Shown piece after piece: positions 1 to 62,630 of a stretch of DNA of 64,000 nt; position 1 is the first letter of the stretch, and every line of letters begins with the position of its first letter. Origin of the DNA: Octopus sinensis (lineage: Eukaryota). The notes under the pieces were generated by a model that was not told the DNA's origin, searched no databases, and saw only the letters and a program-made list of their open reading frames with translations. A program made the translations under genes and the position numbers. The DNA lies in the NCBI RefSeq assembly GCF_006345805.1, contig NC_043014.1:22010001-22074000 (forward strand), read 5' to 3'.

Positions 1-2364
1 CTTTTCGACTGATAGCAGTTTATGCTCCGTCCTTAACAGGCCGACCAGATTTCTTTCGACGTCTAGAGTCTTTCATGGGAACGTCTCGTCCTTTACTTTT
101 AGTGGGGGATTGGAATGCCACCCTGGACACGCATCTAGACTACGTGGGCAGAGATAGCAATAGAAGGGGATGCAAATGCCTCAAAGACCTGCTCAGACGT
201 TTCTAACTGTCTGACAGGTACCGACTGGACCACCCGAATGTGCCAATGTGGACATGGAGTAACCGCATCGGGTCGTCCAGATCATACTTAGATAGAGTAT
301 TCTGTAGGACAATAGATAAAAATAGTGTAGGTTGTCCACAATTTCATATAGTCAGTTACACAGATCACAAGTTTGTGACTTGTACACTTGACTTACATAA
401 GACACATAGGCAGGGTCCTGGTTACTGGAAACTGAACGCGTCTTTTACAGCACGACAGGTTTACAGCACATTAGTTAAGAGAGCTTTGACGGGTACCATC
501 ATCAACAACAGATGGTGGTATGCCCTAAAAAAAGCAATTAAAGCAGAATCAGTCAGATACAGTAGAGCCCTAGCATTAGACCGAAATAGAATAGAGGGAG
601 AATTAGTTAAGGTTTTAGAAGAGGCACTTAGAACTGGCATCGCGTCCAACGTGCTGGCGGCGAGATTGGCCCTCGACCAACACCTCAACGCCAAACACGA
701 GGGATGCGTTGTCAGAGCTAGGATGCGTGCTCTGAGGAACGAAGGAGTTGGAGCCGCCCAAGAGGCCCGAGTGGTGGAGACGCAACGAGGCAACAGAGCC
801 ACCATCAAGTCTCTTATAGATGAACAGGGGCGCGAATTGCTCGAGCCTAAAAGGATGTGTGGGGCTTTTCAACAACACTTCACCCAACTGTTGGGACAAG
901 TGGTGGGTCAGAACGCAGAGTGGACTTTAGTGCCTACCTGCATGCCTTGCCACGACTCTCAGCAAGAGAGGTGGAGTCTTGTGAAAGGCCTATCACAGCT
1001 GCGGACGTACAGGATGCGATGGTAGGCTGCGCGAGAGACAAGTCACCAGGCTTGGATGGTCTGCCCTACGAACTTTATTTTCATATGCCAGACTTGTTTG
1101 GAGGCGTCTTGGCAGCTGTCTACTGCAACTGGCAGCAAAACAGGAGTATTCCTGCTTTTGTAAAGCGAGGAGCAGTGGCACTGATTAAGAAAGACCCAAA
1201 CAAGGGGGACGTCATAGATAATTTCAGGCCCATCACTCTGCTCAACGCAGATTTGAAAACTGGAACGTATACTCTTCCGCTTCTTGTGGAAGGGAAACGT
1301 TCCGATGGTTAGGCGATCCATTTGCTGTCAACACCCGCAAAATGGAGGGCTGGGCATGCCGTGGTTGATGATGCGCAGACATGCGCTGAGACTGCGACAT
1401 CTCCGGCGCTTCATAGACAACGGTGAACAGGTGTGGTCGCCTTTTGTGCGGCGCGCTTTCCCGCAGCTCGTCTCCTTGGACGAACTACAGTCATGGATCA
1501 AGCAGAGACCGAGGCTAGGCGAATGGCACCGCGAGTGTCGCGTTGCTCTCAAGCAACTCTGCCGTCCGGGATCGAACTTGTGCGACTCCATCACAACAAA
1601 GGCATTCTATAGAGGATTAGAGGAGGGGAGGTGCGACGACGAACTCGGGCAGAGTCTGGTCGTCGACGAGGAACACCTGACCCACCAGTTCAGGACAACT
1701 TTCGGGCCGGGACCTATGAACAATCACCAAAGATCCCTGGCCTGGCAGTGCTATCGAGAAGCATTACCTGTTCGGGATAAGCTCTACAGACACGGTTCCA
1801 GACACACTGGACCGACTTGCCCGAGATGCGGTCAGAGCGAGGAAACCGTTCTGCACGCACTCGTGCAATGTCCAACCATTTCAGACCTGTGGGCTTATGC
1901 CGAACAGCTGCTGTCACGTGTGGGACGAATCCGCCTATCGGTCGAGTCTATCGTGAGAATTGCTCCGCCCCTTCCCTCAACCGGGAAGGCAAGGCAGTTT
2001 TCATCGTACTGGTGGCCATGGTGAAAGAATGTGTGTGGTGGACCCGAGCGAAAGGATTAGAGACAAACACTTATCTCTCTGGCCAATCGCTCATCAACTT
2101 TTTCAAGTACCACTTGAAAAGGAAGGTGAGAATGGAGAGGGAAGTTTTGTCTCGCGAAAGATTAAAAAAAAGATGGGTGAATGTTGCAAAGATGGTGCGT
2201 GCTAGAGACGAAACCATTTTGAGCATGATCCTGTAGATCGTAAAAAAAGAAAGAAAGAGAGCATTTTGATCTCATGTGGTTATTTCCTCCCTGACTGAGG
2301 TTCCCGTGGTCTTTTCTGTAGGCTTTTCTTCCCACGGATGAACCCAATCTTGTTATATCAATGT
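1..2364 (+). mobile_element. Tx1-clade non-LTR retrotransposon copy A (runs off window 5' end; internally deleted ORF2; 3' UTR cut short)
   Basis: Collinear with copy E ORF2: [58 protein letters not shown]. Jumps at ~1260 from the RT N-terminus to the post-RT region. ORF2 stop at 2236. Ends in a short TATCTATCTATCTA run at ~2365-2378. Confidence 0.93.
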
Positions 2365-2378
2365 TATCTATCTATCTA

Positions 2379-3300
2379 AATACCTGACCCGCCTGTTTGA
2401 AACGACTTTCGGGCCGGGACCTATGGACAACTTTCAGAGATCCCTGGCCTGGCAGTGCTACCGAGAAGCGCTACCCGTTCGGGATAAGCTCTATAGGCAT
2501 GGCTCGAGAAACACGGGGCCGACCTGCCCGAGATGCGGGCAGAGCGACGAAACCGCTCTGCACGCAATCGTGCAGTGTCCAACAATCTCCGACCTGTGGG
2601 CTTATGTCGAACGACTGCTGTCACGTGTGGGACGTGTCGGTTTATCAGCCGAGTCTATCGTTAATATCGTCACGCCTCCTTCCTTCAAACGGGAAGGAAG
2701 AGCTATTTTTATCATACTTGTGGCTATGGCGAAAGAATGTATCTGGTGGACGCGCCTGAAAGGATTAGAAACAAACACTTTCCTCTCTGGTCAATCTCTC
2801 ATCAACTTCTTATCACTTGAAGGGGAAAGTGAGAGTAGAGAGGCAAGTTTTGTCTAGTGAATCTTTTAAAAAAAGATGGGTGAATGTAGCAAGGATGGCA
2901 CGTATGGATGACGAAGCCACCTTGACTATGATTCTATGAACCGTAAAAATTAATACAGAGAGTTGCTTATTTGCAAAAAAAAAAAAAAAAATGAAATATA
3001 ACATGTGACTTCATTGACCGAGGTTACCGTGGTCTTTTCCGTAGGCTTTTCTTTCCACGGGTAAACCTCACCTGTCCTCCCCTTTACACTTCATATTGAC
3101 ATTTCTGTGATAACGATCCCTATTGATCCAATTTCCCCCCCTTTTTTTCTTTTATCCCCTCCTTTTTTGTTCTCTTTTTTTCCATTTAAGATCCCTTTTG
3201 ATCGAAAACCAAACCCCCTTCTTTTACCCCCAAAAGAAAAGCTCTACCTTGTAATTTTGTCCTGTCTGTGTGCAGCCCTGTGTGGCTAATAAAGAAACAT
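2379..3300 (+). mobile_element. Tx1 copy B, 5'-truncated (ORF2 C-terminus + 3' UTR)
   Basis: [25 protein letters not shown] segment; ends GCCCTGTGTGGCTAATAAAGAAACAT directly followed by (CTAT)n. Confidence 0.93.
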
Positions 3301-3325
3301 CTATCTATCTATCTATCTATCTATA

Positions 3326-3378
<53 letters not shown>

Positions 3379-3411
3379 GTCTGTCTGTCTGTCTGTCTAT
3401 CTGTCTGTCTA

Positions 3412-3470
<59 letters not shown>

Positions 3471-3504
3471 GTCTGTCTATCTGTCTATCTGTCTGTCAAT
3501 CTAC

Positions 3505-3567
<63 letters not shown>
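3301..3567. repeat. (TATC)n/(TGTC)n tetranucleotide microsatellite between Tx1 copies B and C
   Basis: Directly visible tandem repeat. Confidence 0.97.
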
Positions 3568-3570
<3 letters not shown>

Positions 3571-4759
3571 CAGGCTCTTCGTAGACGACGGTGAACAGGT
3601 GTGGTCGCCGTTTGTGAGGCACGCTTTCCCGCAGCTCGTCTCCATGACCGAACTACAGTCGTGGATCAAAAAGAGGCAGAGGAAGGGCGAATGGCACCGC
3701 GAGTGTCGCGTTGCTCTCAAGCAACTCTGCCGTCCTGGGTCAACCTTGAGTGACTTCCACACAACCAAAGCATTCTATAGGGAATTAGTGGAGGGGAGGT
3801 ACGACGACGAGCTCGGGGCGAACCTGGACGTCGACGAGGAGTACCTGACCCGCCTGTTCAGGACGACTTTCGGGCCAGGGCCCATGGACAACTTCCAGAG
3901 ATCCCTGGCCTGGCAGTGCTACCGAGAAGCGCTACCCGTTCGGGATAAGCTCTACAGACACGGCTCGAGAAACACGGGGCCGACCTGCCCGAGATGCGGT
4001 CAGAGAGACGAAACCGTTCTGCACGCACTCGTGCAGTGTCCAACAATTTCCGACCTGTGGGCTTATGTCGAACAACTGCTGTCACGTGTGGGACGAGTTG
4101 GTTTATCAACTGAGTCTATCGTCAATATTGTCACGCCTCCTTCCTTCAAACGGGAAGGAAGAGCTATTTTCATCATCCTTGTGGCTATGGCGAAAGAATG
4201 TATCTGGTGGACGCGTCTGAAAGGATTGGAGACAAACACTTTCCTCTCTGGTCAATCTCTCATCAACTTCTTCAAGTACCACTTGAAAAGGAAAGTGAGA
4301 GTAGAGAGGCAAGTTTTGTCTAGCGAATGTTTTAAAAAAAGATGGGTGAATGTAGCAAGGATGGCACGTATGAATGACGAAGCCACCTTGACTATGATTC
4401 TATGAACCATAAAAATTAATACAGAGAGTTGCTTATTTGCAAAAAAAAAAAGAAAAGAAATATAACATGTGACTTCATTGACCGAGGTTACCGTGGTCTT
4501 TTCCATAGGCTTTTCTTTCCACGGGTAAACCTCACCTGTCCTCCCCTTTACACTTCATATTGACATTTCTGTGATAACGATCCCTATTGATCAATTTTTT
4601 TTCCTCTCCCTTTTTAACCCCCCCTTTTTTTGTCCTCTTTCTCTCCTTTTACGATCCCTTTTGATCGAACCCCCCCCTTTTTTTTTACCTTCAAAAGAAA
4701 AGCTCTCCCTTGTAATTTGTTCTATCTGTGTGCAGCCCTGTGTGGCTAATAAAGAAACA

Positions 4760-4760
<1 letters not shown>
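3568..4760 (+). mobile_element. Tx1 copy C, 5'-truncated
   Basis: ORF 3599..4405 is the ORF2 C-terminus with the CCHC (zf-RVT-like) motif; same 3' terminus ..CTAATAAAGAAACAT + (ATCT)n. Confidence 0.94.
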
Positions 4761-4830
<70 letters not shown>

Positions 4831-4831
4831 A
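4761..4831. repeat. (ATCT)n microsatellite
   Basis: Directly visible. Confidence 0.97.
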
Positions 4832-4883
4832 TCCATGCAAATGCAGGCACATGTAAATCTGAAAGCGTATATATCTGCATGTG

Positions 4884-5784
4884 TCCAGAGATCCCTGGCC
4901 TGGCGGTGCTACCGAGAAGCGCTACCCGTTCGGGATAAGCTCTATAGGCATGGCTCGAGAAACACGGGCCCGACTTGCCCGAGTGCGGGCAGAGCGACGA
5001 AACTGCTCTGCACGCAATCGTGCAGTGTCCAGCAATTTCCGACCTGTGGGCTTATGTCGAACGACTGCTGTCACGTGTGGGACGTGTCGGTTTATCAGCC
5101 GAGTTTATCGTTAATATCGTCACGCCTCCTTCCTTCAAACAGGAAGGAAGAGCTATTTTTATCATACTTGTGGCTATGGCGAAAGAATGTATCTGGTGGA
5201 CGCGCCTGAAAGGATTAGAGACAAACACTTTCCTCTCTGGTCAATCTCTCATCAACTTCTTCAAGTATCACTTGAAGAGGAAAGTGAGAGTAGAGAGGCA
5301 AGTTTTGTCTAGTGAATGTTTTAAAAAAAGATGGGTGAATGTAGCAAGGATGGCACGTATGAATGACGAAGCCACCTTGACTATGATTCTATGAACCGTA
5401 AAAATTAATACAGAGAGTTGCTTATTTGCAAAAAAAAAAATAAAAGAAAGAAATATAACATGTGACTTCATTGACTGAGGTTACCGTGGTCTTTTCCGTA
5501 GGCTTTTCTTTCCAAGGGTAAACCTCACCTGTCCTCCCCTTTACACTTCATATTGACATTTCTGTGATTACGATCCCTATTGATCAACTTTTTTCCTCTC
5601 CCCTTTCCTTTTTTTCCCCTCTCCCCCCTTATTTTAAAAAATCCTCCCCTTTTTTGTCCTCTTTCTTTCCTTTTACGATCCCTTTTGATCGAAAACCAAC
5701 CCCCTTTTTTTACCCCCAAAAGAAAAGCTCTACCTTGTAATTTGTTCTGTCTGTGTGCAGCCCTGTGTGGCTAATAAAGAAACA

Positions 5785-5785
<1 letters not shown>
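4884..5785 (+). mobile_element. Tx1 copy D, 5'-truncated
   Basis: Near-identical to copy B. Begins at TCCAGAGATCCCTGG and ends ..CTAATAAAGAAACAT + (ATCT)n. Confidence 0.93.
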
Positions 5786-5850
<65 letters not shown>

Positions 5851-5866
5851 ACTATCTGTCTATCTG

Positions 5867-5938
<72 letters not shown>
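5786..5938. repeat. (ATCT)n microsatellite upstream of the full-length Tx1
   Basis: Directly visible. Confidence 0.97.
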
Positions 5939-6093
5939 CGGACGTGCTGTCACTTCGGCTCCGAAGGTAATCGTTTATTTTGACTATTTATAGCCCATAT
6001 TTTTGTACATTTTTGTAAATAAGGTGTGTAAGGCACTCAACTTTCGTTTGAGTGCTTTTCCAAGGGAGGCATTCGCCCCTAGGGGCAGTTTCA

Positions 6094-6147
6094 AACCTAG
6101 TTAATTTGTGTAACCTAGTTAAATTGTGTAACCTAGTTAAATTGTAT
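6094..6147 (+). repeat. Three tandem 18-bp units (AACCTAGTTAAATTGTGT) in the Tx1 5' UTR
   Basis: Units at 6094, 6112 and 6130; a role as internal promoter monomers is inference only. Confidence 0.8.
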
Positions 6148-6172
6148 TGTAGAACGCTGGTCGCGTTCTTTT

Positions 6173-7764
6173 ATGGACCAGCATTTTCCTAGTCTGGAAA
6201 CGCTAGGCGAAAAAAAGAACGTATGCACGCAAAGTGCAAACCTGAATGACGTGGTAGTGAACGCTGCAACCACTTGCGGTAACAGCCCTGTCGCCACCAC
6301 CACCACCACCACCACTAACAACAACAACAACGAGACTACTACTGCTACCACCACCACCACCACTACCACCACGACCAACATAAATGATAAAAATGAAACT
6401 CACGCGAATACTATTAAGAAAAACAACAACAAGAAGAACAACAATAAAAATGAACTATCTAATAGTGAAGATGTTAATATAAAAAAATCAACAACACCAG
6501 TAAATTTCACTGACACTCTTCGTCAGAAGAAAGAAATAGTAACATTTACAAATGAAGAGCTAATAGAAACGAGAGCTCTCTTTACAACCCGTGGGCAAGA
6601 TTTAGTGCTGCATACACCTCAACACATAAAGGAACAAATAGAAAATAAGACAATTATATATAAAATTATAAGAAAAAACAAAAAGCAAAATGAACAGATT
6701 ACAAAAACGGATATAGAAAAATGTCTAAAAAACATAATGAAAAAAAAGAATATATAAACTGGGGTCCCCAGTTTAACACAGTAGTGGGCCGCTTCCCTAA
6801 CCAGGAAGTGGCAAAAGCTCACTCTACCGAGTCTTTGGAAAATGATGATATCAAAATGGTACCTTATTTCAAAGGCCAGAGAGTGAGTAGAATTACTATT
6901 AAAAATGTACCCCCCGAGATCCCGAACAAATGGATAACAGGGGCAATCTGTTACCATTTGAAAAAGATCAATATTTTAGAAACCGCCGTGTACCTAAACG
7001 ACAATTGGGGTGGAAAAACAATAGTAGTGACCATCCAGATTGAGGGGGCCTCTATCGAGAGCCTACCCGATAGGATCCACCTAGAAAATGGGCAAAGCCT
7101 ATATGTTGTGGCAGAAGGCAAAACGCCTAGATGCTACAACTGTGGCAGCCCAGAGCATTTAATTGCCAAGTGCGCTCTAGCACAGAAAAAACAAGAAAGA
7201 ACAAATCAGAAAACAAATAAAAAACCCTTGTTGCCAACACCAACACCAACACACTCAATTATGGAACAATGCCAAGAAGAAAAACAACAAACCAGCAAAC
7301 AAACCCCAACAACATCACCAAGAAAAGAAACAGTACCAACAAAATCACCGTTGACGACGCAACCAGTTTATCATGCTGAACCAAAAGGTAGACCCACACC
7401 AACACCCAGGACGACAATTAAAAAGACAGAAAACAGTGACGAGAAGACAAATTCTACCCCTAACACCATAACAACACAAACACCGCACAAAACATCAACA
7501 ATTTCTACAAGCGTACATATTAACACAAATGCTTTGCCTTTACCCTCTTCTGATACGTCGGACGACGAAAGTTCGATGGAATGGCAAATAGCCACAGGGG
7601 GTAAAAGGAAAAAATCAAAAAAGCCCACCAAACAAGGAAGTAAAGCAGGGAGATATTTAACTCCGGACAGCATCCCACTAGACAATAAAAAAATCAATGA
7701 ACCCGCAAAACCACACACACAACTAACTGCAATAGACACAGACAATAAAAAATTAATGGATTAG
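6173..7764 (+). pseudogene. Tx1 ORF1 (gag-like nucleic-acid-binding protein), frameshifted
   Basis: ORFs 6173..6757 and 6721..7764 overlap at an A-run (~6740). CCHC zinc knuckle CYNCGSPEHLIAKC; ITIKNVPPEI RRM-like motif; low-complexity Thr/Asn N-terminus and Pro/Thr/Lys C-terminus. The stop at 7764 may be premature. Confidence 0.85.
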
Positions 7765-8075
7765 ATTGTATCCAACACGGACATCTGTGAAGATGACTTT
7801 AAGACAAACAATCATCCGCGCACCACACCACCGAAGCACATAAAAATTGTACACATAACACAAACACAACACCATACACTGAAAACAATATTTCCAAATG
7901 CGGTAGGCGGGTTTCAACGATACCTCTCCAAGAAACTATACAAACACCTCATCAAAGACACTACAAAAGAAGAAGAAAAAAAATGAAACTTTCGAAATGA
8001 GTAAGTGACCTTCCCTCTTGCCTCTTGTCTCTTCCAATGTTTGTGTGTGAAACACAACTTTCGTAAACGTCAATT

Positions 8076-11000
8076 ATGCTTAAATTAGGTTGTGTGAATG
8101 CGCGTGGCTTGGCGTCGGCTTGGAAGCAAGGTTACCTTCTAAACGACATCAAGTCACTGAACGTGGATATAGTAGCTATCAGTGAAACCAGACTCAGCAA
8201 GTCGCGGGCCCTCGCGTCCATGTTTGGCGATCAATTTGACATTTATTTTTCTCCCTGTCTGCCGAACATGGGTGGTGGAGGTACCGCGGTGCTTTTTCGA
8301 AAGAGTCTAAATGTAAAAGTAAGAACAATATTCCTAGACCCGGAGGGTAGGCTGGTTGTCTTGGACGTGGATGGCAGAAATGGGTGTGCATTCCGTCTGA
8401 TGGCAGTTTATGCACCGTCCTTAACGGGTCGGGCGGATTTCTTCAGACGTCTAGAGGTTTTCCTGGGTACGTCTAGACCTTTACTGTTAGTAGGGGATTG
8501 GAACGCTACCTTGGACACGCATCTAGATTATGTGGGAATGGATAGGAATAGAAGGGGGTGTAAGTGCCTCAAAGACCTACTCAGACGTTTCCATTTGTCT
8601 GACAGGTTCCGACTCGACCATCCGAACGTGCCAACGTGGACTTAGACAAACCGCGTCGGATCGTCGAGATCTTATCTAGATAGAATTCTATGCACGACAG
8701 CGGATAGGGATAGTGTAGGATGTCCACAATTTAAAATAGTCAGCTACACAGATCACAAATTTGTGACGTGTACGCTCGACTTAGATAAGACACATAGACA
8801 GGGTCCCGGTTACTGGAAACTGAACACGTCGCTCTTCGCGCGACAGGTTTACAGGAACCGGATTAGCGAGTTAATTAAGAGGGCGCTGACGGAAGCCGTC
8901 GTTAACAACCGCTGGTGGTTCGCCCTGAAAATGGCAATAAAATCGGAATCAATTAGGTTTAGCAAGGAATTAGCGATAGATCGAAACAGAGTAGAGGGAG
9001 ACCTAGTTAAGAAACTAGAAGAGGCACTTACCACTGGCAGCGCAACCAACGTGATGGCTGCGAGGATGGCGCTCGACCAACACCTCAACGCCAAGCACGA
9101 AGGTTGCGTCGTCAGAGCTAAAATGCGTGCCTTAAGGAATGAAGGGATCGAAGCTGCGCGAGAGGCCCGGGTAGCGGAGGCGCAGCGTGGCAACAGAGCC
9201 ACCATTCGGTCTCTAATAGATCAACAGGGATGCAGTTTACTCGAACCCGAAAGGATGTGTGAGGCCTTTCAACAGCACTTTGCTCGATTGTTTGGTGCGA
9301 GTGGTGGGTCGGAAGGCAGGATGGATTTCAGTGCCTACCTGACCAACCTGCCGCGGCTCTCGGCAAGAGAAGCGGAGTGTTGTGAAAGTCCCATCACAGC
9401 CGCTAACGTGCGGGCTGCGATGGCGGGCCGCGCGAGGGATAAGTCGTCTGGATTGGATGGTTTACCCTACGAGCTGTATTGTCATATGCCAGACTTGTTT
9501 GACGACCTCTTGGCATCAGTCTACTGCAACTGGCAACAAAACGGGAGAATTCCCGGTTTCGTGAGCCGAGGTGCAGTGACGTTGCTGAAGAAAGACCCAA
9601 ACAAGGGGAATTTTATAGATAATTTCAGGCCCATCACTCTGCTCAACGCAGATTTGAAAATTTTGGCCAAGGTAATAGCCGAGAGGTTGGCGCTTGTCAT
9701 TGGTAAACTGGTCGACAGGGCTCAAACATGCGCCGTGCCGGGCAGAACCATACATGACAACCTCCATCTGATGCGCTACATTGTGGACAGGGTAGTTAAG
9801 GATACTGGCATGGGTGGGGCGCTGATAAATTTGGATCAGTCTAAAGCATTCGATAGGGTCGACCATCGGTACTTGGCGGCCGTCCTCAGGGCGGCTGGCT
9901 TCGGTCCCGTCTTCTGCGGTTGGATCGCTGCCTTGTATAGCGGCATCCGATCGGTGATTCGGGTGAACGGTCACCTGTCGAAACCGTTTGACATCACGCG
10001 TTCGGTCCGTCAGGGGTGTCCCCTGTCGGCGCTTCTGTATGTATTGACTCTCGAGCCGCTACTGCGGAAGCTGGCGACACTGAGGGGCATCACACGGGAA
10101 CTGGGTTGCGGGACGAGTGTGTCGGCATATGCGGACGATGTCACCGTCATAGTGTCGAGCGACAAACACATCCAGATGATAGGCGAGACACTAAGAAAAT
10201 ACGAAACGGTGACGGGAGCGAAGATTAACCCGGAAAAGTCAGTGGGTTTGCTACTCGGCACCTGGAGAAGCAAGCCCATGCCGTCCGACTGCGGCTCAGT
10301 AGTGGGACGCTGGACGGACGGACCGGTTAAATTGCTCGGGGTCTGGTTCAGTCCGGACCTCCAAATGGATAAGAACTGGGACGAGATCACGTGTAGAGTG
10401 GTCGCTCTCAGCCAAACATGGGCCGAGAGAAAACTGTCTCTAAAAGGCCGGGCGGAGGTGGCGAACGCGTACATCGCATTCGTCATCGATTACCGCCTGA
10501 CCGTCGTGCCTTGTCCCGACGCCACCATCATCAAACTGGAACGCATACTCTTCCGCTTCCTGTGGAAGGGTGGCGTTCCGATGGTGAGGAAGTTCATTTG
10601 CTGTCAACATCCGTTGAATGGAGGACTGGGAATGCCGTGGTTGATGATGCGCAGGCATGCGCTGAGACTGCGGCATCTCTGGAACTTCATCGACGACGGT
10701 GAACAGGTGTGGGCGCCGTTTGTGAGGCGCGCCTTCCCGCAGCTCGTCTCACTGACCGAACTGCAAACGTGGATCAAAAAGAGACCGAAACTGGGCGATT
10801 GGCACCGAGAGTGTCGCCAAGTTCTACAGCAGCTCTGCCGACCGGAGTCAAACTTGTGCAACTTACAAACGACTAAAGCGTTCTATAGAGGACTAGTGGA
10901 GGGGAGGTCCGACGACACACTCGGGGCACACCTGGGCGTCGATGAGAAATTCCTAACCCGCCTGTTCAGGACGACGTTCGGGCCGGGGCCTATGGATAAC

Positions 11001-11527
11001 TTCCAGAAATCCCTGGCTTGGCAGTGCTATCGAGACGCACTACCTGTTCGAGAGAAGAGCTACAGACACGGTTCGAAAACCATCACCGGACCGACCTGCC
11101 CGAGATGCGGTCAGAGCGACGAAACCGTTCTGCACGCACTCGTGCAGTGTCCAGATATTTCAGAGCTGTGGACCTTCGTCCAGATATTTCAGAGCTGTGG
11201 ACGTTGTCACGTGTAGGTCGGGCCCGCCTATCGGCCGAGTCTTTCGTGAATATTGTTCCACCACCTTCCTTTAAACGGGAAGGGAAAACGGTTTTCATTA
11301 CACTGATGGCTATGGCGAAAGAATGTGTGTGGTGGACGCGTTTGAAAGGACTGCAAACAAACACCTTCCTCTCTGGTCAGTCTCTCATCAACTTTTTTAA
11401 GTACCACTTGAAAAGGATGAGAATAGAGAGGAAGGCTTTGTCGAACGAATGTTTTAATAAAAAGTGGGTAAAAGTGGCAAAAATAGTCAGTATGAAAGAC
11501 GACACTATTTTAAGCATAAATCTGTAA
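8076..11527 (+). pseudogene. Tx1 ORF2: APE endonuclease + reverse transcriptase + C-terminal CCHC
   Basis: EN motifs NARG, ISET, VYAP, GDWN, YLDR, TDH. RT motifs FRPITLLN, LDQSKAFDRV, VRQGCPLS, AYADD. C-terminal [15 protein letters not shown]. Lesions: TAG at 8643-8645 (TGG in copy A) and a 25-bp duplication (11149-11173/11178-11202) causing a frameshift. Confidence 0.95.
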
Positions 11528-11643
11528 CCAAAAGAGACAACGAGAAGTAAGGCGACTTACTCATGTGTTCTTTTTCGAATTGTCTGAGGTGACCTTGGTC
11601 TTTTTTGTAGGTTTTTCTTTCCAAGGCTACACCTAAACTGTGA

Positions 11644-11686
<43 letters not shown>

Positions 11687-11843
11687 CTTTTTTATACACC
11701 ACACAACCTACAGATCCCTATTGACCAAACGTTTTCTTTTTTTTTTTTGTGCCCCACCCATCCCACCTCGAAAAGAAAAAATTCTACATTGTATTTCGTC
11801 CATTTTTATTCTGTGTTTAGCCCTGTGTGGCTACAATAAAAAG

Positions 11844-11844
<1 letters not shown>

Positions 11845-11929
<85 letters not shown>

Positions 11930-11967
11930 GTCCGTCTGTCTGTCTGTTTGTCTCTATCTATCTATCA

Positions 11968-12034
<67 letters not shown>
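11845..12034. repeat. (TATC)n with variant block GTCCGTCTGTCTGTCTGTTTGTCTCT
   Basis: Directly visible; variant block at 11930-11955. Confidence 0.96.
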
Positions 12035-12036
<2 letters not shown>

Positions 12037-12397
12037 ATACAGAGAGATGCTTATTTGTAAAAAAAATATAACATGTAACTTCATTGACCGAGGTTACCGT
12101 GGTCTTTTCCGTAGGCTTTTCTTTCCACGGGTAAACCTCACCTGTCTTCTCTTTTACACTTTATATTGATATTTCTGTGATAACGATCCCTATTGATCGA
12201 TTTTTCTTTTTCTTTTTCTTTTTTTATTTATTTATTTATTTTATTTTTTTTTTGTTTTTTGCTTTCCTCTTTCTTTCCATTTAACGATCTCTTTTGATCG
12301 AAAACCAATCCACGTTTTTTTTTATCCCCCAAAAGAAAAGCTCTACCTTGTAATTTGTCCCGTCTGTGTGCAGCCCTATGTGGCTAATAAAGAAACA

Positions 12398-12398
<1 letters not shown>
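12035..12398 (+). mobile_element. Tx1 copy F, 3' UTR-only fragment (B/C/D subfamily)
   Basis: Matches the 3' UTR of copies B-D; ends GGCTAATAAAGAAACAT + (ATCT)n. Confidence 0.92.
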
Positions 12399-12470
<72 letters not shown>

Positions 12471-12493
12471 GTCCGTCTGTCTGTCTGTTTGTC

Positions 12494-12544
<51 letters not shown>

Positions 12545-12705
12545 CTATCTATCTATCTATCTATCTATTTATCTCTCTATCTATCTACCTTTCTGTCTGT
12601 CTACCTGTCTGCCTGTCTGTCTGCCTGCCTCTCTGTCTGCCTGTCTGCCTGTCTGTCTGTATGTCTGTCTGTCTCTATCTATCTATGTATCAATCAATCT
12701 ATCTA
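12399..12705. repeat. (ATCT)n/(GTCT)n/(GCCT)n compound microsatellite
   Basis: Directly visible; repeats the same variant block at 12471-12496. Confidence 0.95.
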
Positions 12706-13459
12706 TATACATATATAATCATTCATTTGTGAGGTTCGTATAGATTCCTGATACTCGTGGTGATGGTGCTGAGCTATTGAAAGACTGATATAACCCCATT
12801 GAAGTATATTTTCAACGAGTTTGTTCATAGAGTCAGTATAGATTTATCGTGAAGTCTGTAAGGTTCATTGAGTTCAAGCTTGGTTGCGAAAGAGTGATGA
12901 AGAGAATTATCTGTTGCAAATCTGCAGGAGTTCCGGGATGCGGCAGTACATAAGTAGTTGATGTATATGAGGAAGTGTTGGGATAAAACCGAATCTAAAG
13001 TAATACCAAAGGTACGCTGTGAAGGCGTGTTCTGACAAGAAGTTTTCAATTTAAAAGATAAAAAAAAAAGAACGCAAGCCGGATGGAGGCTATAGTTGGA
13101 CATATTGGGACAACGATACACGCGCGCGCACACATACGAACATCATGATGTCCCAGATTCATCGCAACGACCATTTCTCAACAAATCACCTACATATATA
13201 TATAGTTTGTCAAATTTTTATCATTAGGAATCGAAATTGTGGAACTACAAGCTATGATGAAAAAATAAGTGTGTGTGTATAGTCAAAATGGAGTGAGACG
13301 ACATGGAAGAAAACTATTGAAACTGTTAAGGAAACAGGACAAGAAGTATATCTCTCGTCTGCCATGGGAACAAGAATCAGCATAGTTTCAGTGCATTTAA
13401 GTCCATAGGCCTAATTGCGTAACGTTATTCTTATGGATGCGCCATCAAATCGCTGACAT

Positions 13460-14177: not shown

Positions 14178-14383
14178 AATTTTGGCACAAGGCCACCAAT
14201 CTCGGCAAAGAGCAGTAAATCGATTTCATCGATCCCAGTGCTCAACTGGTGCTTATTTTATCGAACCCGAAAGGATGAAAGACAAAGTGGACCTCTGAGG
14301 AATTTGAACTCAGATCGTAAAGTCGAAGAAATGTTGCTAAGCATTTTACCCGGCGTCTTAACGATTTTGCCAACTGGCCGCCT
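14178..14383 (-). mobile_element. tRNA-derived SINE family A, diverged copy
   Basis: Reverse complement matches the full copies at 36731 and 52762 (GAGTTCAAATTCC B-box-like motif; TTTCATCCTTTCGGG core). Confidence 0.75.
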
Positions 14384-18457: not shown

Positions 18458-18600
18458 AAGTTCAAATTCCGCTGGGTTCGGTTTTGCCTTTCATCCTTTC
18501 GGAGTCGATTGAATAAGTACCAGTTATGCACTGGGGCTGATGTAATCTACTTAATCCCTCCCCCCAAATTCGAGGCCTTGCGCTTCCAGTAAAAAAGATT
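18458..18600 (+). mobile_element. SINE family A, 5'-truncated, tail type 2
   Basis: GTTCAAATTCCGC..TTGCCTTTCATCCTTTCGG core, then the CCCTCCCCCAAA..GGCCTTG tail; followed by (CTT)n. Confidence 0.8.
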
Positions 18601-22179: not shown

Positions 22180-22866
22180 TATCTATTGCAATCGCACCAC
22201 GCTCTTCGTCTGGCTAGGGTCAAGCAACTGACAAGCAAATCTGTGGTATTGGGCAGAATATTTGCCCTTGTCCAATGACCGAGTATTGCTGACCTGTGGG
22301 TTTATGTCGAACACCTACTGTCGCGTATAGGATGGATCCGGCTATCAGCTGAATCCATTGTGAAGATTGCCCCGCCACCCTCTTTTGGCCAGGAGGGGTA
22401 GGCAATTTTTATTTGTCTAGTGGCTCTAGCGAAAGACGTAGCATCGTGGACCCGTTTAAAAAGGCTAAAGACAGACACTTTCCTCTTTGGCCAAGTCCTC
22501 ATCAACGTTTTCAAGTTTCACTTGAAAAGTTGAGGGTAGAGAGGGAAGTGTTGCTTTGTAACAAGTTTGTTGAAATGTGGGTGAATGTTGGAAGAATGGC
22601 CAGTGCAAATGGACCAATTCCGAGCGTGCGCCTGTAAAAGAATGGAGAAGGTATTTTGCCCTGTTGTTCAAGCACCCGTGGCTTTCGTGGGTGTTTCCAG
22701 GAGGACGTTAAAGCGCCTCCTCTATTGGGAGTTTTAATTTCTTTAATTTTTATTGTTATAATATTGTGTACACGCGAAAACCCATTGTATCGTCCTGGTT
22801 TTGTCTTTTATGTTGTATGTCAATTAATGTATTGTATGTGAGCCCTTGTGGCTAATAAAAGAATAC
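22180..22866 (+). mobile_element. Older, diverged Tx1 3' fragment ending in (ATT)n
   Basis: Homologous to the Tx1 ORF2 C-terminus (GACCTGTGGG..TATGTCGAAC; ACACTTTCCTCT; GTGGGTGAATGT); ends AGCCCTTGTGGCTAATAAAAGAATAC. Confidence 0.8.
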
Positions 22867-22867
22867 A

Positions 22868-23840
22868 TTATTATTATTATTGTTATTACTATTATTATTG
22901 ATTTATTTTTTACTTTTAATCTGCATGTTTGTTACAATCACTTGCCGAGACACATCCAGCGTCCTGGTGCGAGTGAAGGATGAGAGATGTTACAGTTTGA
23001 CTGAAAGGTTGGTGAGGGGAAGTGGAAGGGGCAGTGGCGAAATACCTTCATGTAATGCAACACAGACATTTAAATGGATGGGGTTTTTCACAGTATGTAG
23101 ACAGTACTTGTCAGCACAATATTTTGGATTATTCTGAAACATGGTTCTCCTGGGATCTTATCTAGATGTTTCTGACATCCTTTTTTTATCATACCTAGGG
23201 AACCTGCAATAACAGGAACAGATCTCGCTTTAAGATGCCGCATCTTTTGTATTTCAATTTCCAGGTACTTGTATTTATTTCATTTGTCAAATTCCTTTAC
23301 AGAGTGTTTTTTTCCCTGTCCTTGATAATTATGTCTGGTCGATTAGCCTGGATCGTTCCGTCAGTGTTGACTGGAAAATCCCAGATGATAGCGACATTTT
23401 TACCTTCAACAACTGGTTCGGGGTGATGTTTATACCAGCAAGCATGAGTACTGATTTTGGAGTGTTTACATATTTTCTAATGTAAATATCGTCCTATCCT
23501 ATCGTGGTGATATCTGTATTCGTTTGGTATCAGCACAGGACATTCCGTGACGAGATGGTCTATTGCTTCGTCAAATGTGTCGCAGAATCTGCATTTCGGT
23601 TCAGGACCGTTTTGAAGAACGTTAGCCTGGTATTTTTTGTAAGCAAGCTTTGATCTTGTGTCGCCAGTCAGTCTCTGCGTTCAGTCCTGAACTTCTCAGA
23701 CACTGATTGGTTGCTGCTTGGTGTGCATCAGCATTTCGACTTCGAAGTATATACTGTTCATGCAGAGGCTTCTGGCTCCACTGCTCCTCACTTTGTTTCT
23801 GCTTGATCTGTTTTGCAGTCTGCTTGATCTGTTTTGCTTG
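22868..23840 (-). mobile_element. R4/Dong-type non-LTR retrotransposon, 5'-truncated (CCHC + restriction-like endonuclease), (TAA)n tail
   Basis: Minus-strand translation: WSQKPLHEQY..CLRSSGLNAET, CRFCDTFDEAIDHLVTECP..YHHDRI, IWDFPVNTD..ANRPDIII; the 3' UTR ends in AATAATAAT repeats. Confidence 0.8.
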
Positions 23841-23844
23841 ACTT

Positions 23845-25715
23845 CTGTATACATTCAAAGTCCCAGTTTTGTTAATTATATGTTTTGGAATATCAAAGTT
23901 TTTGCAACATTTCCCATATCTTTTCAGACCATATTTTATAGACAGTATTGATCTAAGCATAGGAAGATGCATTTTGTTTTTCAATTTTGATTTGATTACA
24001 CCCATACTACTGAGCAACCGTTCAACTTCTGCATCTGAGTTTGGCAATGTCAATAGATTAATGGCAAAATTTGCAACATCTCTAAAAGGATTTCCTCCAG
24101 TAGCATCTTTATAGTTCAAGACTTCCAGCCAGAATGCCTCAGTATTAGACGTATTTGTCCATTTAACTAAATGAATGCTATTAAACTGAATATCATTTGA
24201 AGCAATTTTTTCTTCGTTTAAATGCATTGCTTCTAAGACAGGTAAAATTGGCTCTTTGAAATGCTTCAAAATATTCTCTACTGAAAAACATTCGATATTC
24301 CTCAGTATATTAATGTTTTCTGGCAAACGGTGCTTGAGCTCTTTATAAAGACAGTAAAAATTGTGCTCTTTTGCGAATATTATTTGCTTCGGTGGCTTCT
24401 TGATAATCATTTGTGCTATTTTTCTCTCGAACTTGTAGCTTAGATTTGGTTTAGGGTCCAGAAAATTTTCAATAGAAGCATCCGGATCAAGAGGATCAAT
24501 TCTACATGTTGACAACACTATCATATTAGCAACAGATTTGATCAAATTTGAAAGATCTTCAAGTAATTTTGTTTTGTGGACAGTATTGGATTCAAACAGT
24601 TTATTCACTTCCTGAACATGTTTTAAAATTGGATGCAAAAATAAAAGGTAAAGTTCATTCCTAGAATCACAAAACATTTCATGTAACGTTTGTGCTGTAA
24701 AGTATTTTTCTTTTGTGGTTGTAGTTTGGAAGAGAGTTTGCAATTCAAACCATTGGCTTAAAATTCTATTTACCGCTGGTTCTATTGACAGCCACCTAGT
24801 CGTACAAGAATTCATGATCTTCAAAGGCTCTTTATCATTGATAGCAAGGTAAAGTTGTTTGTAGGCACTTTGTCTTGTTGAAGAATGAGAGGACCATTTA
24901 TAGGTTTCGGATACTAAAAATTCTAAATTTATGGGTAAGCATTCAGCACAAGTGTGGGATACTGCCAACTGTAAAGAATGACATACACATCTAAATAGAA
25001 GCAATGATGGAACTTCATTTAATTTCTGGAAAACACCATTGTTGACTCCTATCATTACTCTAGCATTGTCGGTTCCTATTGCCAGTAAATTTTTTTTATA
25101 TCTAATTTCTTTTTCACTAATTCAGTTTTTAAGGCATCTACAATGTCATCTGCATCACATGTTTCTAAAGATACCATACTGAAATATGTATGTACCACTT
25201 TTTTGTGAGTGTCACTGTAATATATGATAACAATTCCTAACAACTTGCTCATTAATATATCATTGGATTCATCTAATAACAGGCTAAATTTTCTATCTCC
25301 TCTATCAGAAATCAAATCTCCATCAAAATATGGAGCTGGAACATTTCTCACAATATTTGCACATTTTGTACGATGCAACTTCACTTTTGATATAATACCA
25401 CTATCAGACATATAATTCTTACATAACTCTATTAAGTGATCACAGCTATTAAATGATGAATGGCAACAAATAAACATTGCTAAATTTGCTTCAAGCATAG
25501 ATGTCTTATCATTTTTGGTAAGCAGAATCATTTGATGTGGAGTTGATGCTTTGTTTCTTTGCTTCACAGCGGCTTACTAAAAGAGAATATTTTGCCAACA
25601 TATTACATCTACAATATCTGCAATGTGCTTTAGATTGGTCACTAGTAAACGCTGGCATCTTAAGCCATTCCTTTTGGAATTTTTGCTGGCACAACTTTGA
25701 TTTTTCTTTGCTCAT
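23845..25715 (-). pseudogene. Decayed hAT-superfamily transposase
   Basis: BED-like finger (FQKEWL..AHCRYC), FSLLLDES, CVCHSLQL, TRWLS and the hAT dimerisation motif LPNSDAEVERLLS; split across three ORFs by frameshifts. Termini not confidently found. Confidence 0.88.
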
Positions 25716-26313: not shown

Positions 26314-26460
26314 GCCGAGGTCGATTTTGCCTTTCATCCTTTCGGGGTCGATAAATTAGGTACCAGCTACACACTGGGGTTGATGTAATCGACTTAATCC
26401 CTTTGTCTGTCCTTGTTTGTCCCCTCAATATTTAGCCCCTTGTGGGCAATAGAGAAATAA
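26314..26460 (+). mobile_element. SINE family A, 5'-truncated, tail type 1 (Tx1-like)
   Basis: GCCGAGGTCGA..TTTCATCCTTTCGGGG core; ends TTTAGCCCCTTGTGGGCAATAGAGAAAT. Confidence 0.88.
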
Positions 26461-31183: not shown

Positions 31184-31423
31184 GAAGGATAAGGGGAATT
31201 TTAGAAGGAACAAATCCAGACAATCAATAGAAATTCACAGCATAATTTTAAACACGCAACCAAATAAATATACCTATAAATTTATTGTTTATAAATCATT
31301 GTTTATTTTGTTCAATGATTTATAAATTTATATGTATATTCATTTGGTTGTGTATTTAAAATTATGTTGTGAATTTCTATTGATTACCTGGATTTGTTCC
31401 TTCTAAAATCTCCCTTATCCTTC
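31184..31423. repeat. Long imperfect inverted repeat (foldback/MITE-like), ~100-bp arms
   Basis: Left arm GAAGGATAAGGGGAATTTTAGAAGGAACAAATCCAG..; right arm ..CTGGATTTGTTCCTTCTAAAATCTCCCTTATCCTTC. Confidence 0.9.
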
Positions 31424-31519: not shown

Positions 31520-31649
31520 CCTACGCACAGAACAAACACATGCATATGTATGTATATGCACACACACACTTAAACATCTATGTATATTCATATATACATT
31601 TGTATATACATATACAAACGCATGCATTATATATATCTACATATATATA

Positions 31650-34600
31650 ATGTTCGTCCTTCGGTTCGAAGATGACCAACTGACATCAACTGATGGAACT
31701 GCCGCCATGAGACCGGAGGTGGCTGGTGAGGCCAATCCGGGCAAGGAAGCCCCTCCCACAGGTGGGGCAGAAGTGGGTAGGGGCAGTGCTACTGGTGCAG
31801 GCGGCTCTGACTTTACGCATCTGACGTTTCTGCTCCGCTGACCGAATCCGTCCCTCCTCGGCTGTCCCTGCTCCCACGGTGATTGCGCTGCGCCAGGATG
31901 AGCGGTTGGCAGCAAGTGTCTCCCAGGTCTCTGTTCCGATGGAGAGTCTTTGAGAGAGACCTTGAGACTATCCTTGTAGCGCTTTTTCTGCCCTCCGACT
32001 TTGCGCCTGCCCTGGCCGAGTTCACCGTAGAAGAGCTGTTTTGGGATGCGAGTGTCGGACATGCGGGAGACGTGGCCCGCCCATCTCAGCTGGGCCTTGC
32101 GCATGATTGTGATGGTGCTAGGGAGATCTGCCTGCTTCAGAACTTCCGTGTCTGGGACTTTGTCCTGCCAGCGGATGTGAAGGAGATTCCGAAGACACCT
32201 GAGATGGAAGTGGTTTATCTGGCGCTCGTGCCTTCGGTAAGCAGTCCACGTCTCGCAGCCGTATAGTAGAGTGGTAAGCACGACTGCCCGGTAGACTTTC
32301 AGCTTGGTGTTGAGGCTGATTCCTCTCCGCTCCCAGACTTTCTTTCGCAGTCTCCCAAATGCGCTGCTTGCCTTGGAGATTCTGTTGATGGTTTCAGCAT
32401 CTATGTTGGCATTGCAGGAGAGAGTGCTGCCCAGGTAGGTGAAGTTTTCCACCACTCGTAAGATCCGTCCGTTCACCCTTATCTGAGGCTCATGGTATTG
32501 TTTGCCGGGGGCTGGCTGAAACATCACTTCGGTTTTCTTGCACTGATGGTGAGACCGAAGTTGTCACAGGCTGATGAGAACCTGTCCATCTCGAGCTGCA
32601 TCTCCTGCTCATCGATTGCATTAAGGGCGCAGTCGTCAGCAAAGAGAAAGTCTCTGACGACTGTCTCCCTCACCTTTGTGACAGCCTGCAATCTCCTGGA
32701 GTTGAAAAGTTTCCCGTCTGTCCTGTACTTGATGTTGATACCGGACTTGCAGTCCCTAAAGGCGTCGGACATCATTGCCGAGAACATGATGCTGAACAGT
32801 GTTGGGGCCAGGACACAGCCCTGCCTGACTCCGTTGGTCACCTGGAAGGCTTCAGATGAGTCGCCGTCCTCAAGGATTCTGGCTGTCATTCCGTCGTGGA
32901 ACTGGCGGACAATTGCAATAAATTTGCTGGGGCAACCAAATTTTCCCATGACCTTCCATAGTCCCTCCCGACTGACTGTATCAAAGGCCTTGGTGAGGTC
33001 AACAAAGGTCATGCAGAGGTCAAGGTGCTGCTCCATGCATTTCTCCTGGAGCTGGCGGGCGGCGAATATCATGTCAGTGGTCCCTCGACCCGCACGGAAG
33101 CCACACTGGCTCTCAGGGAGAAGGCCTTGCTCCAAGTGTTCCAGAAGGCGGTCAAGCAGGACCCGGGCCAGGATCTTGCCTGCTATGGACAAGAGGGAAA
33201 TACCTCGGTGGTTGTCGCAGGACTGCCGATCTCCTTTCCGCTTATAAATGTGGACGATTGTTGCATCCCGGAATCTTGAGGGAGTTGTTCCCTGTCCCAC
33301 ATCGACTGGAACAGGTTGGTGAGCTGACTGATCATGGTGGGGCCTCCCGACTTGAACACCTCTGCAGGGATGGCGTCAGAGCCTGGAGCTTTGCCGGTGG
33401 ACATTTTTTTGATGGCTCTGCTCACTTCCCCGACTGCAGGGGGAACAGCCAACTCGTGGTTTGTCGGCACCTGGGGGAGTCGTGCGATGGCTTCCTCGTT
33501 GATCTGGGCTGGTCGGTTGAGCACGATGTTGAAGTGCTCCGCCCATCTCTCCAGGATCAGCCTCTTGTTAGTCAGGAGTGAGGTTCCATCTGAGCTGAGC
33601 AGGGGCGTTGATCCAAAGGAGAACTGCGGTCCATAGACAGCTTTCAGCGCCTCGTAGAATTTCTTGGTGTCGTGTTTGTCTGCGTATCCCTGAATCTCAT
33701 CCGCCTTGGCGCTTAACCATGCATCTTGCATGAGGCGGAGTTTAGCCTGGACTGTGCTGCGAATGTTGTTGAAAGCGGCCTTCTTTGCCGTGCAGGTGGT
33801 GTCATTTTGTGTGAGCCCGCAGCAGACGGCGTTTCTCTTCCAGGAGCTTTTGGATTTCCTGGTCGTTTTCGTCGAACCAGTCCTGGTGGTTCCTCGTAAT
33901 TTGGCCCAGAGTTTCAAGGGCGATGGAATGAACCGTGTCCCTGAATGATTCCCACTGCTCATCGATGCTGGACTGGTCACTCCGAATGTCCAACAGCTTA
34001 CTGTCCATACGTGACTGGAGATCTTGTGCAGTCAGCTGGTTCCCTAATTTCGTGATGTTAAGCTTCCTCGTCACTTTCTGACCCTGTGGTCTTCTCTTAG
34101 GTCGGATGTAGAAATCCATCCTGGAGATGATGAGGCGATGGTCCGTCCAGCAGTCAGCTCCGCACATGGCTTTGACCAGTCTCACGTCCCGCCTGTCTTT
34201 CGCCCTGACGATGACGTAATCTATCAGATGCCAGTGTTTGGAGCGTGGATGCATCCATGATGTCTTGTTGCGTGTTGGCAGACGGAACAAGGTGTTGGCG
34301 ATGGTAAGATCATGAGAGGCACACGCACGCAGGAGGAGTTGTCCGTGCTGTTGCACTTTCCGATTCCTTGCTTTCCCAGTACGCGATGCCAGGCTTGGTG
34401 GTCAGTCCCGACACGGGCGTTAAAATCCCCAAGGAGGATGAGCTTCCCAGGCTGGAGCTGACGTGATGAGAGAGTCGAGTTCCTCATAGAACCTGTCCTT
34501 AACTTCTTCAGGGTTGGTCATGGTGGGGGCGTAAGCACTGATGATGGTCGCACTAGTGTCTTGTTTCCAAGTGGGAGCTGCATCTTCATCAGCCGATCGT

Positions 34601-36730: not shown

Positions 36731-36964
36731 GAGGCGGCGAGCTGGCAGACACGTTAGCGCGCCGGGCGAACTGTTTAGCGGTATTTCGTCTGCCGTTACG
36801 TTCTGAGTTCAAATTCCGCCGAGGTCAACTTTGCCTTTCATCCTTTCGGGGTCGATTAAATAAAGTACCAGTTTCGCACTGGGGGTCGATGTAATCGACT
36901 TAATCCCTTTGTCTGTTCTTGTTTGTCCCCTCTATGTTTAGCCTCTTGTGGGCAATAGAGAAAT
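36731..36964 (+). mobile_element. SINE family A, full length, tail type 1 (Tx1-like), followed by TATC/TACC repeats
   Basis: GGCGGCGAGCTGGCAG head, GAGTTCAAATTCC B-box-like motif; ends GTTTAGCCTCTTGTGGGCAATAGAGAAAT. Confidence 0.9.
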
Positions 36965-37044
36965 GTTTCTATCTATCTATCTATCTATCTACCTACCTAC
37001 CTACCTACCTACCTACCTACCTACCTACCTATCTACCTATCTAT

Positions 37045-39048
<2,004 letters not shown>

Positions 39049-39217
39049 CCATGCAAATGTAGGCACATGTAAATCTGAAAGCGTATATATCTGCATGTGT
39101 CCAGTTTGGATAGGATACGTACGTGAATGTGATTGCGGAGGACGGTTAGAAATGTTAAATATTTTCTTTATTCATCAGCAAATAAATTACAATTGTTATA
39201 ATAATAGTAACAACCAT

Positions 39218-39404
39218 GATTTCAAATTTAGGTACAACGTCAGCAATTTCGGGGATGGGCTAAGTCAATGACATCGACCCCCTAGTGCTCATGTATTTAT
39301 TTTATCCCAAAAGGATGAAAGGCAAAGTGAACCTCGGCGGAATTTGAACGCAGAAACGTTAAGACAAGGGAAATGCAGCTAAGCATTTTACCAGCTCGCC
39401 ACCT

Positions 39405-52761: not shown

Positions 52762-52994
52762 AAGGCGGCGAGCTGGCTGAAACGTTAGCACGCCAGGCGA
52801 AATGCGTAGCCGTATTTCGTCTGCCGTTACGTTCTGAGTTCAAATTCCGCCGAGGTCGACTTTGCCTTTCATCCTTTCGGGTTCGATAAATTAAGTACCA
52901 GTTACGCACCGGGGTCGATATAATCGACTTAATCCGTTTGTCTGTCCTTGTTTATCCTCTCTGTGTTTAGCCCCTTGTGGGTAGTAAAGAAACA
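52762..52994 (+). mobile_element. SINE family A, full length, tail type 1 (Tx1-like)
   Basis: Full head and core; ends CTCTGTGTTTAGCCCCTTGTGGGTAGTAAAGAAACA. Confidence 0.92.
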
Positions 52995-62429: not shown

Positions 62430-62630
62430 TCAAATTCTGGCACAAAGCCAGCAATTTCAAGGAAGTGGGTAAATCGATTTCATCACTCCCTGACAATTAT
62501 TTTATCGACTTCCGAAACGATGAAAAGTATAGTCGACCTTGGTTGAATTTGAACTCTGAACGTAAGGACGGGCAAAATGCCGCTAAGCATTCTGCCTGCC
62601 ATGTTAACGATTCTGCCTGTTCACCACCTT
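62430..62630 (-). mobile_element. SINE family A, diverged
   Basis: AGTCGACCTTGG..GAATTTGAACTCTGAACGTAA..CCGCTAAGCAT. Confidence 0.65.

Follow-up and report, generated by a model that had tools for sequence, protein, structure and literature searches.

A 64,000-nucleotide (nt) stretch of the Octopus sinensis genome (contig NC_043014.1, positions 22,010,001 to 22,074,000; hereafter the window) opens with long interspersed nuclear elements (LINEs) stacked head to tail, with tetranucleotide repeats of the (TATC)n type between them. These copies belong to a real target-preferring clade, about 87% strict at its 3′ end and of a kind that is already known, and comparison of its junctions across the genome supports independent, oriented and in-phase insertion into pre-existing (TATC)n. 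It is probable that this TATC clade, which is likely still active, nicks the GATA strand and reverse-transcribes its RNA there, leaving the repeat on both sides and thereby allowing the copies to stack. Copies A to G bear the letters of an earlier annotation made from the sequence of the window alone (the original prediction); coordinates are window positions, and negative values lie upstream of it.

TATC repeats at the 3′ and 5′ junctions

The exact 24-nt tail of the subfamilies named after copies B, C and G occurs 7,137 times genome-wide (its reversed control, 0 times), and TATCT follows within 0-2 nt in 6,183 cases (87%), which extends to the whole genome the oriented TATC that the original prediction had read from the flanks of seven copies. 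TATC also follows all 30 best matches of the E type, E itself included, 49 of 49 copies selected by the protein of the second open reading frame (ORF2), and, in the least biased sample (the opening 30 tails along contig C1), 26 tails. At the 3′ junction, the initial five bases are TATCT in 51/53, 34/36, 24/24 and 13/14 distinct contexts of four types; beyond them the agreement drops to about 65-95%, and the tracts can change to TC, TGTC or TATG after 5-7 nt. When 127 distinct 3′ flank contexts were classed, 107 were TATC, two TC and none TTC.

At the 5′ side, we scored a perfect TATC run of at least 10 nt at the junction. Such runs are found in 14 of 16,806 control windows of 34 nt around ATT-type loci and loci of a short interspersed nuclear element (SINE), that is, in 4/5,278, 2/6,180 and 8/5,348 windows of the control sets, a background of at most 0.15%. 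The share among the elements lies between 59 and 93%, depending on the sample. The best G-type matches have 5′ TATC in 23 of 26 visible junctions (in four of the 30 matches the element extended past the edge of the locus). Where the preceding 400 nt are free of an element tail, 17 of 19 copies carry 5′ TATC, the “upstream tail” label resting on a loose pattern. Among the protein-selected copies (51 picked from 150 rows: 11 supplied loci, 20 mostly with a long ORF and 20 with a short one) the count is 40 of 46 visible junctions; the six misses comprise three with TATC behind a bridge of 15-36 nt, one TGTC/TATC mix, one inverted element piece and one foreign sequence. Full-length 5′ ends of the A and E types show TATC in 28/30, nearly all in the same phase, although L098 and L099 may be one locus. 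The C1 sample gives 13/22 strictly, and 17/22 when degenerate tracts are counted by eye. Random 5′ flanks, the objection that the original prediction had raised against itself, are at odds with an excess far over background, even if the excess is weaker in the unselected C1 sample. The 5′ junction of locus L322 runs into an inverted element piece that resembles the twin-priming inversions of L1.

A further layer of evidence comes from flaws in the repeats. Both junctions are available in 64 copies, 23 of which are informative, i.e., the repeat has a flaw 5-17 nt past the 3′ end (three junctions were set by hand, and up to 6 nt of microhomology with the element was allowed). The same flawed string, of 8-18 nt, ends at the 5′ junction in 9 of these 23 copies, as compared with 112 of 1,449 between-locus control pairs (P about 3e-5), and the flawed duplications start at the first base after the element. 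Moreover, one G-type copy (L350) lies inside (ATT)n; its duplication measures 10 nt, and neither flank contains TATC. Because locus-specific flaws are duplicated and L350 is devoid of TATC, the 3′ repeat is target DNA and not a tail, and the claim of insertion into pre-existing TATC is supported, the flawed duplications being indirect support for a target at the empty site.

Several observations weigh against this conclusion. The 954 exact tails with no following TATCT (13%) indicate that the target preference is not absolute, five of the 22 5′ junctions in C1 have no TATC-like tract, and one of the two visible E-type 5′ junctions (L087) is not TATC. Furthermore, in 14 of the 23 informative copies no duplication extends as far as the first flaw, and no true empty site was seen, no contig of other organisms having bridged locus L068 with repeats masked. 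At this locus, the orthologous flanks, about 5% diverged, are present in runs X3 and X4 of a related organism (two studies). One 63-nt contig of X4 joins the unique flank to 15 letters of the G-type 3′ end, 8 nt from the E-type junction of Octopus sinensis, and in X3 an overhang of 15 letters occurs at this position, which suggests, on the thin basis of one contig, two independent insertions into one short tract.

Class of the elements and a sister clade in (ATT)n

The ORF2 of copy G matches the profiles PF03372 (E=2.4e-12), PF00078 (E=3.2e-31) and PF13966 (E=4.5e-8), in the layout of the L1 group: an N-terminal APE endonuclease, a reverse transcriptase (RT) and a C-terminal zinc motif. The best solved structure is human L1 ORF2p (182 bits, E=1e-52), with the catalytic motifs aligned, and R2 reaches 72 bits. 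Habits of the L1 group are also present, namely variable 5′ truncation and target-site duplications of 8-18 nt. The protein P0001 scores 318 bits against P0298, automatically named “Transposon TX1 putative 149 kDa”, and 182 bits against human L1. ORF1 has one CX2CX4HX4C knuckle in the E, A and ATT types (zf-CCHC, 19.9 bits for a cut-off of 20.8), a CCHC zinc knuckle in ORF1 being a feature of the Tx1 clade. These likenesses point to L1/Tx1-type LINEs, the placement in Tx1 itself being putative. Neither searches for homologs nor a cluster look-up nor the ESM Atlas turned up a curated Tx1 reference, and the closest named protein is that of Argonauta hians (67% across the RT region). Every type has a predicted small 3′ stem-loop followed by AAUAAA, with no poly(A); the predicted loop is CUGUGU in the TATC types and CUUGU in the ATT types and the SINE.

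Besides copy H, an old relative at 22264-22864, a protein search uncovered a young clade whose open frames span 1,142-1,150 amino acids (aa), in which ATT comes after all 29 copies having a 3′ end (one of the 30 has none). In a tree of the last 330 aa of ORF2 (LG+G4, all 36 rows kept, with P0020 and P0193 as the root), the TATC copies form one clade (UFBoot 100) and the ATT copies another (97), with P0002 beside the latter and Argonauta outside both. The two clades are 65-70% identical in the ORF2 C-terminus, and intact copies of both coexist in one genome. The ATT clade also builds arrays. Its full-length 5′ junctions show ATT in 8/8 cases, in four of which the tract is the tail of a neighbour, whereas its truncated copies do so in just 5/17; old ATT-type 5′ junctions were left out of the count, many copies having outrun the 614-nt reference. 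Considering also that its first 15 3′ bases are nearly invariant, the ATT clade is a looser targeter, perhaps with a carried tail. When the genome was searched with the Argonauta protein, the ATT clade came up once more and no further subfamily did.

Within the TATC clade, the A and E types (L091-L120, L123-L158) are near-identical over the first ~430 nt and about 79% identical beyond, which suggests a swap of the 5′ untranslated region (UTR) between the two subfamilies. The B/C and G types (C at 3567-4759, G at 37045-38931) share 95% aa identity in the ORF2 C-terminus and differ in their 3′ UTRs, likely through another module exchange. Full-length B/C copies (L285-L302) have a variable short leader before TGGACG, doubled in L299. 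Lengths above 1.6 kb are reached by 28/30 best E-type matches (L061-L090) as opposed to 4/30 G-type ones (L001-L030), a gap that may come from truncation differing by subfamily, or from ascertainment.

What sets the choice of repeat

In the mechanism that we favor, the endonuclease of the element would nick the GATA strand inside (TATC)n, and reverse transcription would start there. The nick would fall at or just past 5′-GATA/GATA-3′ on the bottom strand, a position chosen because the 3′ junctions begin with TATCT. ORF2 would grip the element RNA through its 3′ stem-loop rather than through a poly(A), truncated cDNA ends would pair with the target over microhomologies of a few nt and, at full-length 5′ ends, a short target-like leader on the RNA would assist target choice. 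The repeat would remain on both sides, so that later copies could stack head to tail. Splitting a tract and duplicating a few nt is enough to explain the arrays, in agreement with the proposal that they grow because each insertion leaves its target on both sides.

As to what distinguishes GATA from AAT, the endonucleases of 11 ATT, 22 A/E and six B/C copies were compared. The loop after YAP differs between the clades (TGAGQ vs [SP]LTGR), and so does the residue aligned with L1 R155 (R vs Y), which adjoins a 3-aa indel; the two differences lie in loops that face the DNA. For L1, PMC8565326 describes a major-groove contact by Asn118, a residue of the YAP loop, and a contact of Arg155 with the +2/+3 phosphates. 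With these correspondences in mind, we incline, with some reserve, to the endonuclease as the main determinant of the choice, acting through the loop that corresponds to L1 positions 117-120 and the region around the counterpart of L1 R155, the leader helping.

Other data speak against so simple an assignment. The hairpin WTW[TS]NR[IV]GSSRSYLDR is common to both clades, with no change peculiar to either, the clades also differ at about 55 other endonuclease positions, and L1-EN is described as recognizing mainly the shape of DNA (PMC8565326); for these reasons the YAP loop is a guess. Inherited leader variants imply, in addition, that the RNA supplies some of the junction repeat. The hairpin loop itself was rejected as the target switch, being unchanged between the clades; as reported for L1-EN, grafting the Tx1L hairpin onto it did not transfer the target (PMC1950540, PMC8565326). 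SART1Bm, for its part, requires at least three target repeats (PMC7265360). From the endonuclease-set specificity of the original prediction, independent and oriented insertion is retained, while the endonuclease is at most a candidate for its sole determinant: the hairpin usually credited is the same in the ATT clade, and the sequence comparison is ambiguous on whether the endonuclease itself nicks the target.

A different and, in our opinion, rather unlikely explanation places the choice in the RNA: the endonuclease would nick loosely at TA, and insertion would be completed only where a repeat at the RNA end and the 5′ leader pair with the DNA. Under this scheme, a single master copy residing in a new microsatellite would suffice to switch the target, and the transcript would have to end in repeat beyond AAAGAAAC-A/U. 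This would account for the leader variants shared by full-length copies at unlinked loci (CCATCTA in 6/30, CTGTCTA in 4/30, once within pure (TC)n at L109), for 3′ junctions opening with TA or AT in all groups (TATCT, ATTATT, and TA in at least 56/58 SINE ends), for the common hairpin loop, for the 15 nearly invariant 3′ nt of the ATT clade, which resemble a carried tail, and for the landing of a G-type copy in (ATT)n. However, 5′-truncated copies, which have no leader, still mostly have upstream TATC, the ~5 near-invariant nt of 3′ TATC are too few for strong pairing, and the three TATC lineages have in common endonuclease changes that the ATT clade lacks, though these were inherited together. 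It is equally doubtful that the two sister clades, whose endonuclease active faces are almost alike, moved between (ATT)n and (TATC)n because every transcript has a copy of its landing repeat at both ends; if true, this would amount to a target switch templated by RNA in an APE-type LINE, seen in two coexisting active clades.

Far less probable is that TATC is a slippage tail made by the element, the upstream TATC being merely the tail of a neighbour. Arrays are common, the 5′ tract is the 3′ tract of a neighbour in 7/26 cases, and the ATT sister clade, with its few 5′ ATT tracts in truncated copies, partly fits such a scheme. Nevertheless, the solitary copies with 5′ TATC (17/19), the 3′ tracts that turn to TC, TGTC or TATG after a few nt, the flawed duplications beginning right past the element and the TATC-free L350 all contradict it and favor insertion into a pre-existing target.

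The array in the window and beyond

The first 12.7 kb of the window contain six copies, and the seventh, G, stands at 37045-38931. As originally predicted, all seven are on the + strand (as are the array features given below), (TATC)n lies directly 3′ of each, and B, C, E, F and G are also preceded by TATC. Copy A (A-type, 1-2364) begins at -2811, about 2.8 kb outside the window; its 5′ end is full length, it has an internal deletion of ~870 nt at 1257-1259, and the 3′-most ~120-180 nt are lost, so that the TATC junction of this copy does not mark a clean end of insertion. A short (TATC)3 (2365-2377) separates it from the 5′-truncated copy B (2381-3298), with a 3′ UTR of the B/C type, after which a (TATC/TGTC)n tract (3299-3569) leads to copy C (3567-4759), also 5′-truncated, 93.7% identical to an intact B/C-type copy and joined at its 5′ end through an ATCT microhomology. 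Next come a (TATC)n tract (4760-4830), a 56-nt piece (4833-4888), the 5′-truncated B/C-type copy D (4884-5784) and another (TATC)n tract (5785-5938). Copy E (5939-11844) is of the E type and full length (5.9 kb), with the 3′ stem-loop, AATAAA and no poly(A). Its ORF1 (6137-7764) is split by a frameshift and encodes one CCHC knuckle (zf-CCHC, E=7.5e-4, under the curated cut-off), and its ORF2 (8076-11527), with APE endonuclease, RT and zf-RVT, has one in-frame stop inside the endonuclease and a frameshift near 11200. A (TATC)n tract (11845-12036), copy F (12032-12397), consisting only of 3′ UTR, and a terminal (TATC/TGTC)n tract (12398-12706) close the array. Copy G is 5′-truncated, with an ORF2 near the B/C type and a 3′ UTR of its own, between a (TATC/TACC)n tract (36969-37043) and (TATC)29 (38932-39048).

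The 56-nt piece duplicates the unique flank 3′ of G (39049-39104), its likely source. The two are the only matches genome-wide, about 34 kb apart, and the piece is joined to D through a TCCAG microhomology, likely by a template switch of D's cDNA during insertion. Two other origins were rejected: a repeat family common to the flanks of C/D and G, on the two matches just mentioned, and 3′ transduction from G, the 3′ UTRs of C and G being different.

The true beginning of the array lies outside the window, about 5.8 kb upstream, and the added part contains two further copies and a mariner-like insert; the head-to-tail stacking predicted at the outset stands, with eight copies in all instead of six. 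The insert, which we take to be mariner-like from a motif, occupies -4215 to -2932 (L121), at a TA six bases behind the upstream copy U2, and splits the array. Beyond the upstream end of the array, at -7785 to -7149 (L122/L121), the opposite strand carries an old and diverged relative (68-71%).

The best local alignments between array copies, which represent the A, E and B/C/G types, reach 74-92% identity; since truncation points and 3′ UTRs differ as well, tandem duplication is excluded, and the independent insertions of the original prediction are borne out. Comparable head-to-tail stacks of mixed subfamilies exist on other contigs too and, one 56-nt piece duplicated from 34 kb away notwithstanding, the divergence between neighbours of different subfamilies and 5′ ends makes a tandem duplication or an assembly artefact virtually inconceivable. 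The statement that no copy sits in TAA repeats holds for the seven young ones, but not for the older sister-clade member H (22264-22864, +), which is followed by (ATT)n at 22867-22899.

Relation to known target-specific LINEs

Microsatellite specificity has been described in the Tx1 clade of teleosts for Kibi, (TC)n, and Koshi, (TTC)n (Kojima and Fujiwara 2004, as cited in PMC4494074 and PMC3812793). The TATC clade is similarly an APE-type LINE specific to a microsatellite, but its target is not a pure pyrimidine tract (TC in 2/127 flanks, TTC in none) and its host is an octopod. Crocodilian Tx1 families (Tx1-1_Crp, Tx1-1_Gav, Tx1-2_AMi and others) target (TTCC)n and (TTTC)n according to PMC4494074. 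Their targets are likewise tetranucleotides, of another repeat, and the octopus genome differs in having intact, near-identical copies of two sister clades with different repeats. PMC4494074 takes as target-specific those elements with one sequence type in more than 20% of flanks; the TATC clade has its repeat at 87% of 3′ ends and 59-93% of 5′ junctions.

Other clades also use microsatellites. Dong has a restriction-like endonuclease, and Waldo and Mino belong to the R1 clade. PMC3812793 lists Dong (R4 clade) as TAA-specific, Waldo as targeting (ACAY)n and Mino (AC)n, while Togen targets (TG)n (PMC4640811); Dong, Waldo and Mino share with the octopus elements the microsatellite target, Dong's repeat class being that of the ATT sister clade, and differ in clade. 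With human L1 ORF2p (PDB 8UW3), the likeness lies in the endonuclease-RT-zinc layout and the aligned catalytic motifs (PMC1950540, PMC8565326), whereas L1 has a poly(A) and a TTTT/AA site and the TATC and ATT elements end in a stem-loop with no poly(A).

In Octopus vulgaris, 80 L1-Tx1 families have been reported, 13 of them recently active, and the main text of that report contains no target statement for them and no mention of “GATA” (PMC13282606); some of these families may be the elements described here. The parts consulted of PMC3747384 and PMC4758252 add nothing on octopus Tx1 tails. We found no GATA-specific LINE in the literature searched, Repbase and Dfam lying outside that search, and GATA is absent from the 2013 list of microsatellite targets in PMC3812793. 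The prediction of an undescribed GATA-specific lineage agrees with this absence from the literature searched, and is qualified by the tetranucleotide targets (TTCC)n and (TTTC)n already known for Tx1 (PMC4494074).

(GATA)n joins the repeats targeted by Tx1-type LINEs, and the habit extends to a cephalopod. A review considers the microsatellite targeting mechanism of APE-type elements poorly understood (PMC3812793), and the main added value here is a coexisting sister pair with different repeats, in which the hairpin does not vary and attention is drawn to other loops, or to the RNA. In addition, GATA marker loci in this octopus can carry polymorphic or parallel insertions.

Activity, repeat seeding and other features of the window

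The 150 best matches to the end of G's ORF2 mostly tie on one score, several of them in open frames of 1,146-1,152 aa; the copies compared share 97-99.5% identity along as much as 6.2 kb, five having an ORF2 of 1,145-1,146 aa, and intact copies with 98-99% identity exist. The likely present-day activity of the TATC clade is deduced from these intact, near-identical copies.

The original prediction also supposed that insertions may help to seed GATA repeats. Perfect (TATC)5 runs have 72,599 starts, as against 6,183 exact B/C/G tails with TATCT (~8.5%), a comparison that covers exact tails of these types and leaves out the A and E types and diverged tails. Most GATA runs do not seem to begin at such a tail; on these counts large-scale seeding was rejected, and any contribution would be at most minor.

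Directly upstream of G's target tract, a SINE (36732-36963, +) has its last 40 nt resembling the LINE 3′ end. The same abundant SINE, with a LINE-like 3′ stem-loop and a AATAAAGAAA end, recurs at 52763-52992, at 26314-26458 and in L193-L222. Its insertion sites start with TA, with duplications of ~10-19 nt read by eye, and a GATA preference is absent (1/30). The genome search with the Argonauta protein found no TA-targeting partner LINE for it. A second form with the same head and another tail lies at 14206-14383, 18459-18559, 39261-39388 and 62497-62629, and its heads often come after ATT tracts (e.g., L037, L045, L187). A scan of metagenome contigs for relatives of P0118 gave 102 pattern matches, none of them confirmed.

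Elsewhere in the window, several long open frames on the minus strand (23622-25573 and 31637-34401) probably belong to other transposable elements. An interstitial degenerate (TTAGGG)n tract occupies 49475-49640, and a 240-nt self-complementary stretch at 31184-31423 is 83% identical to its own reverse complement.

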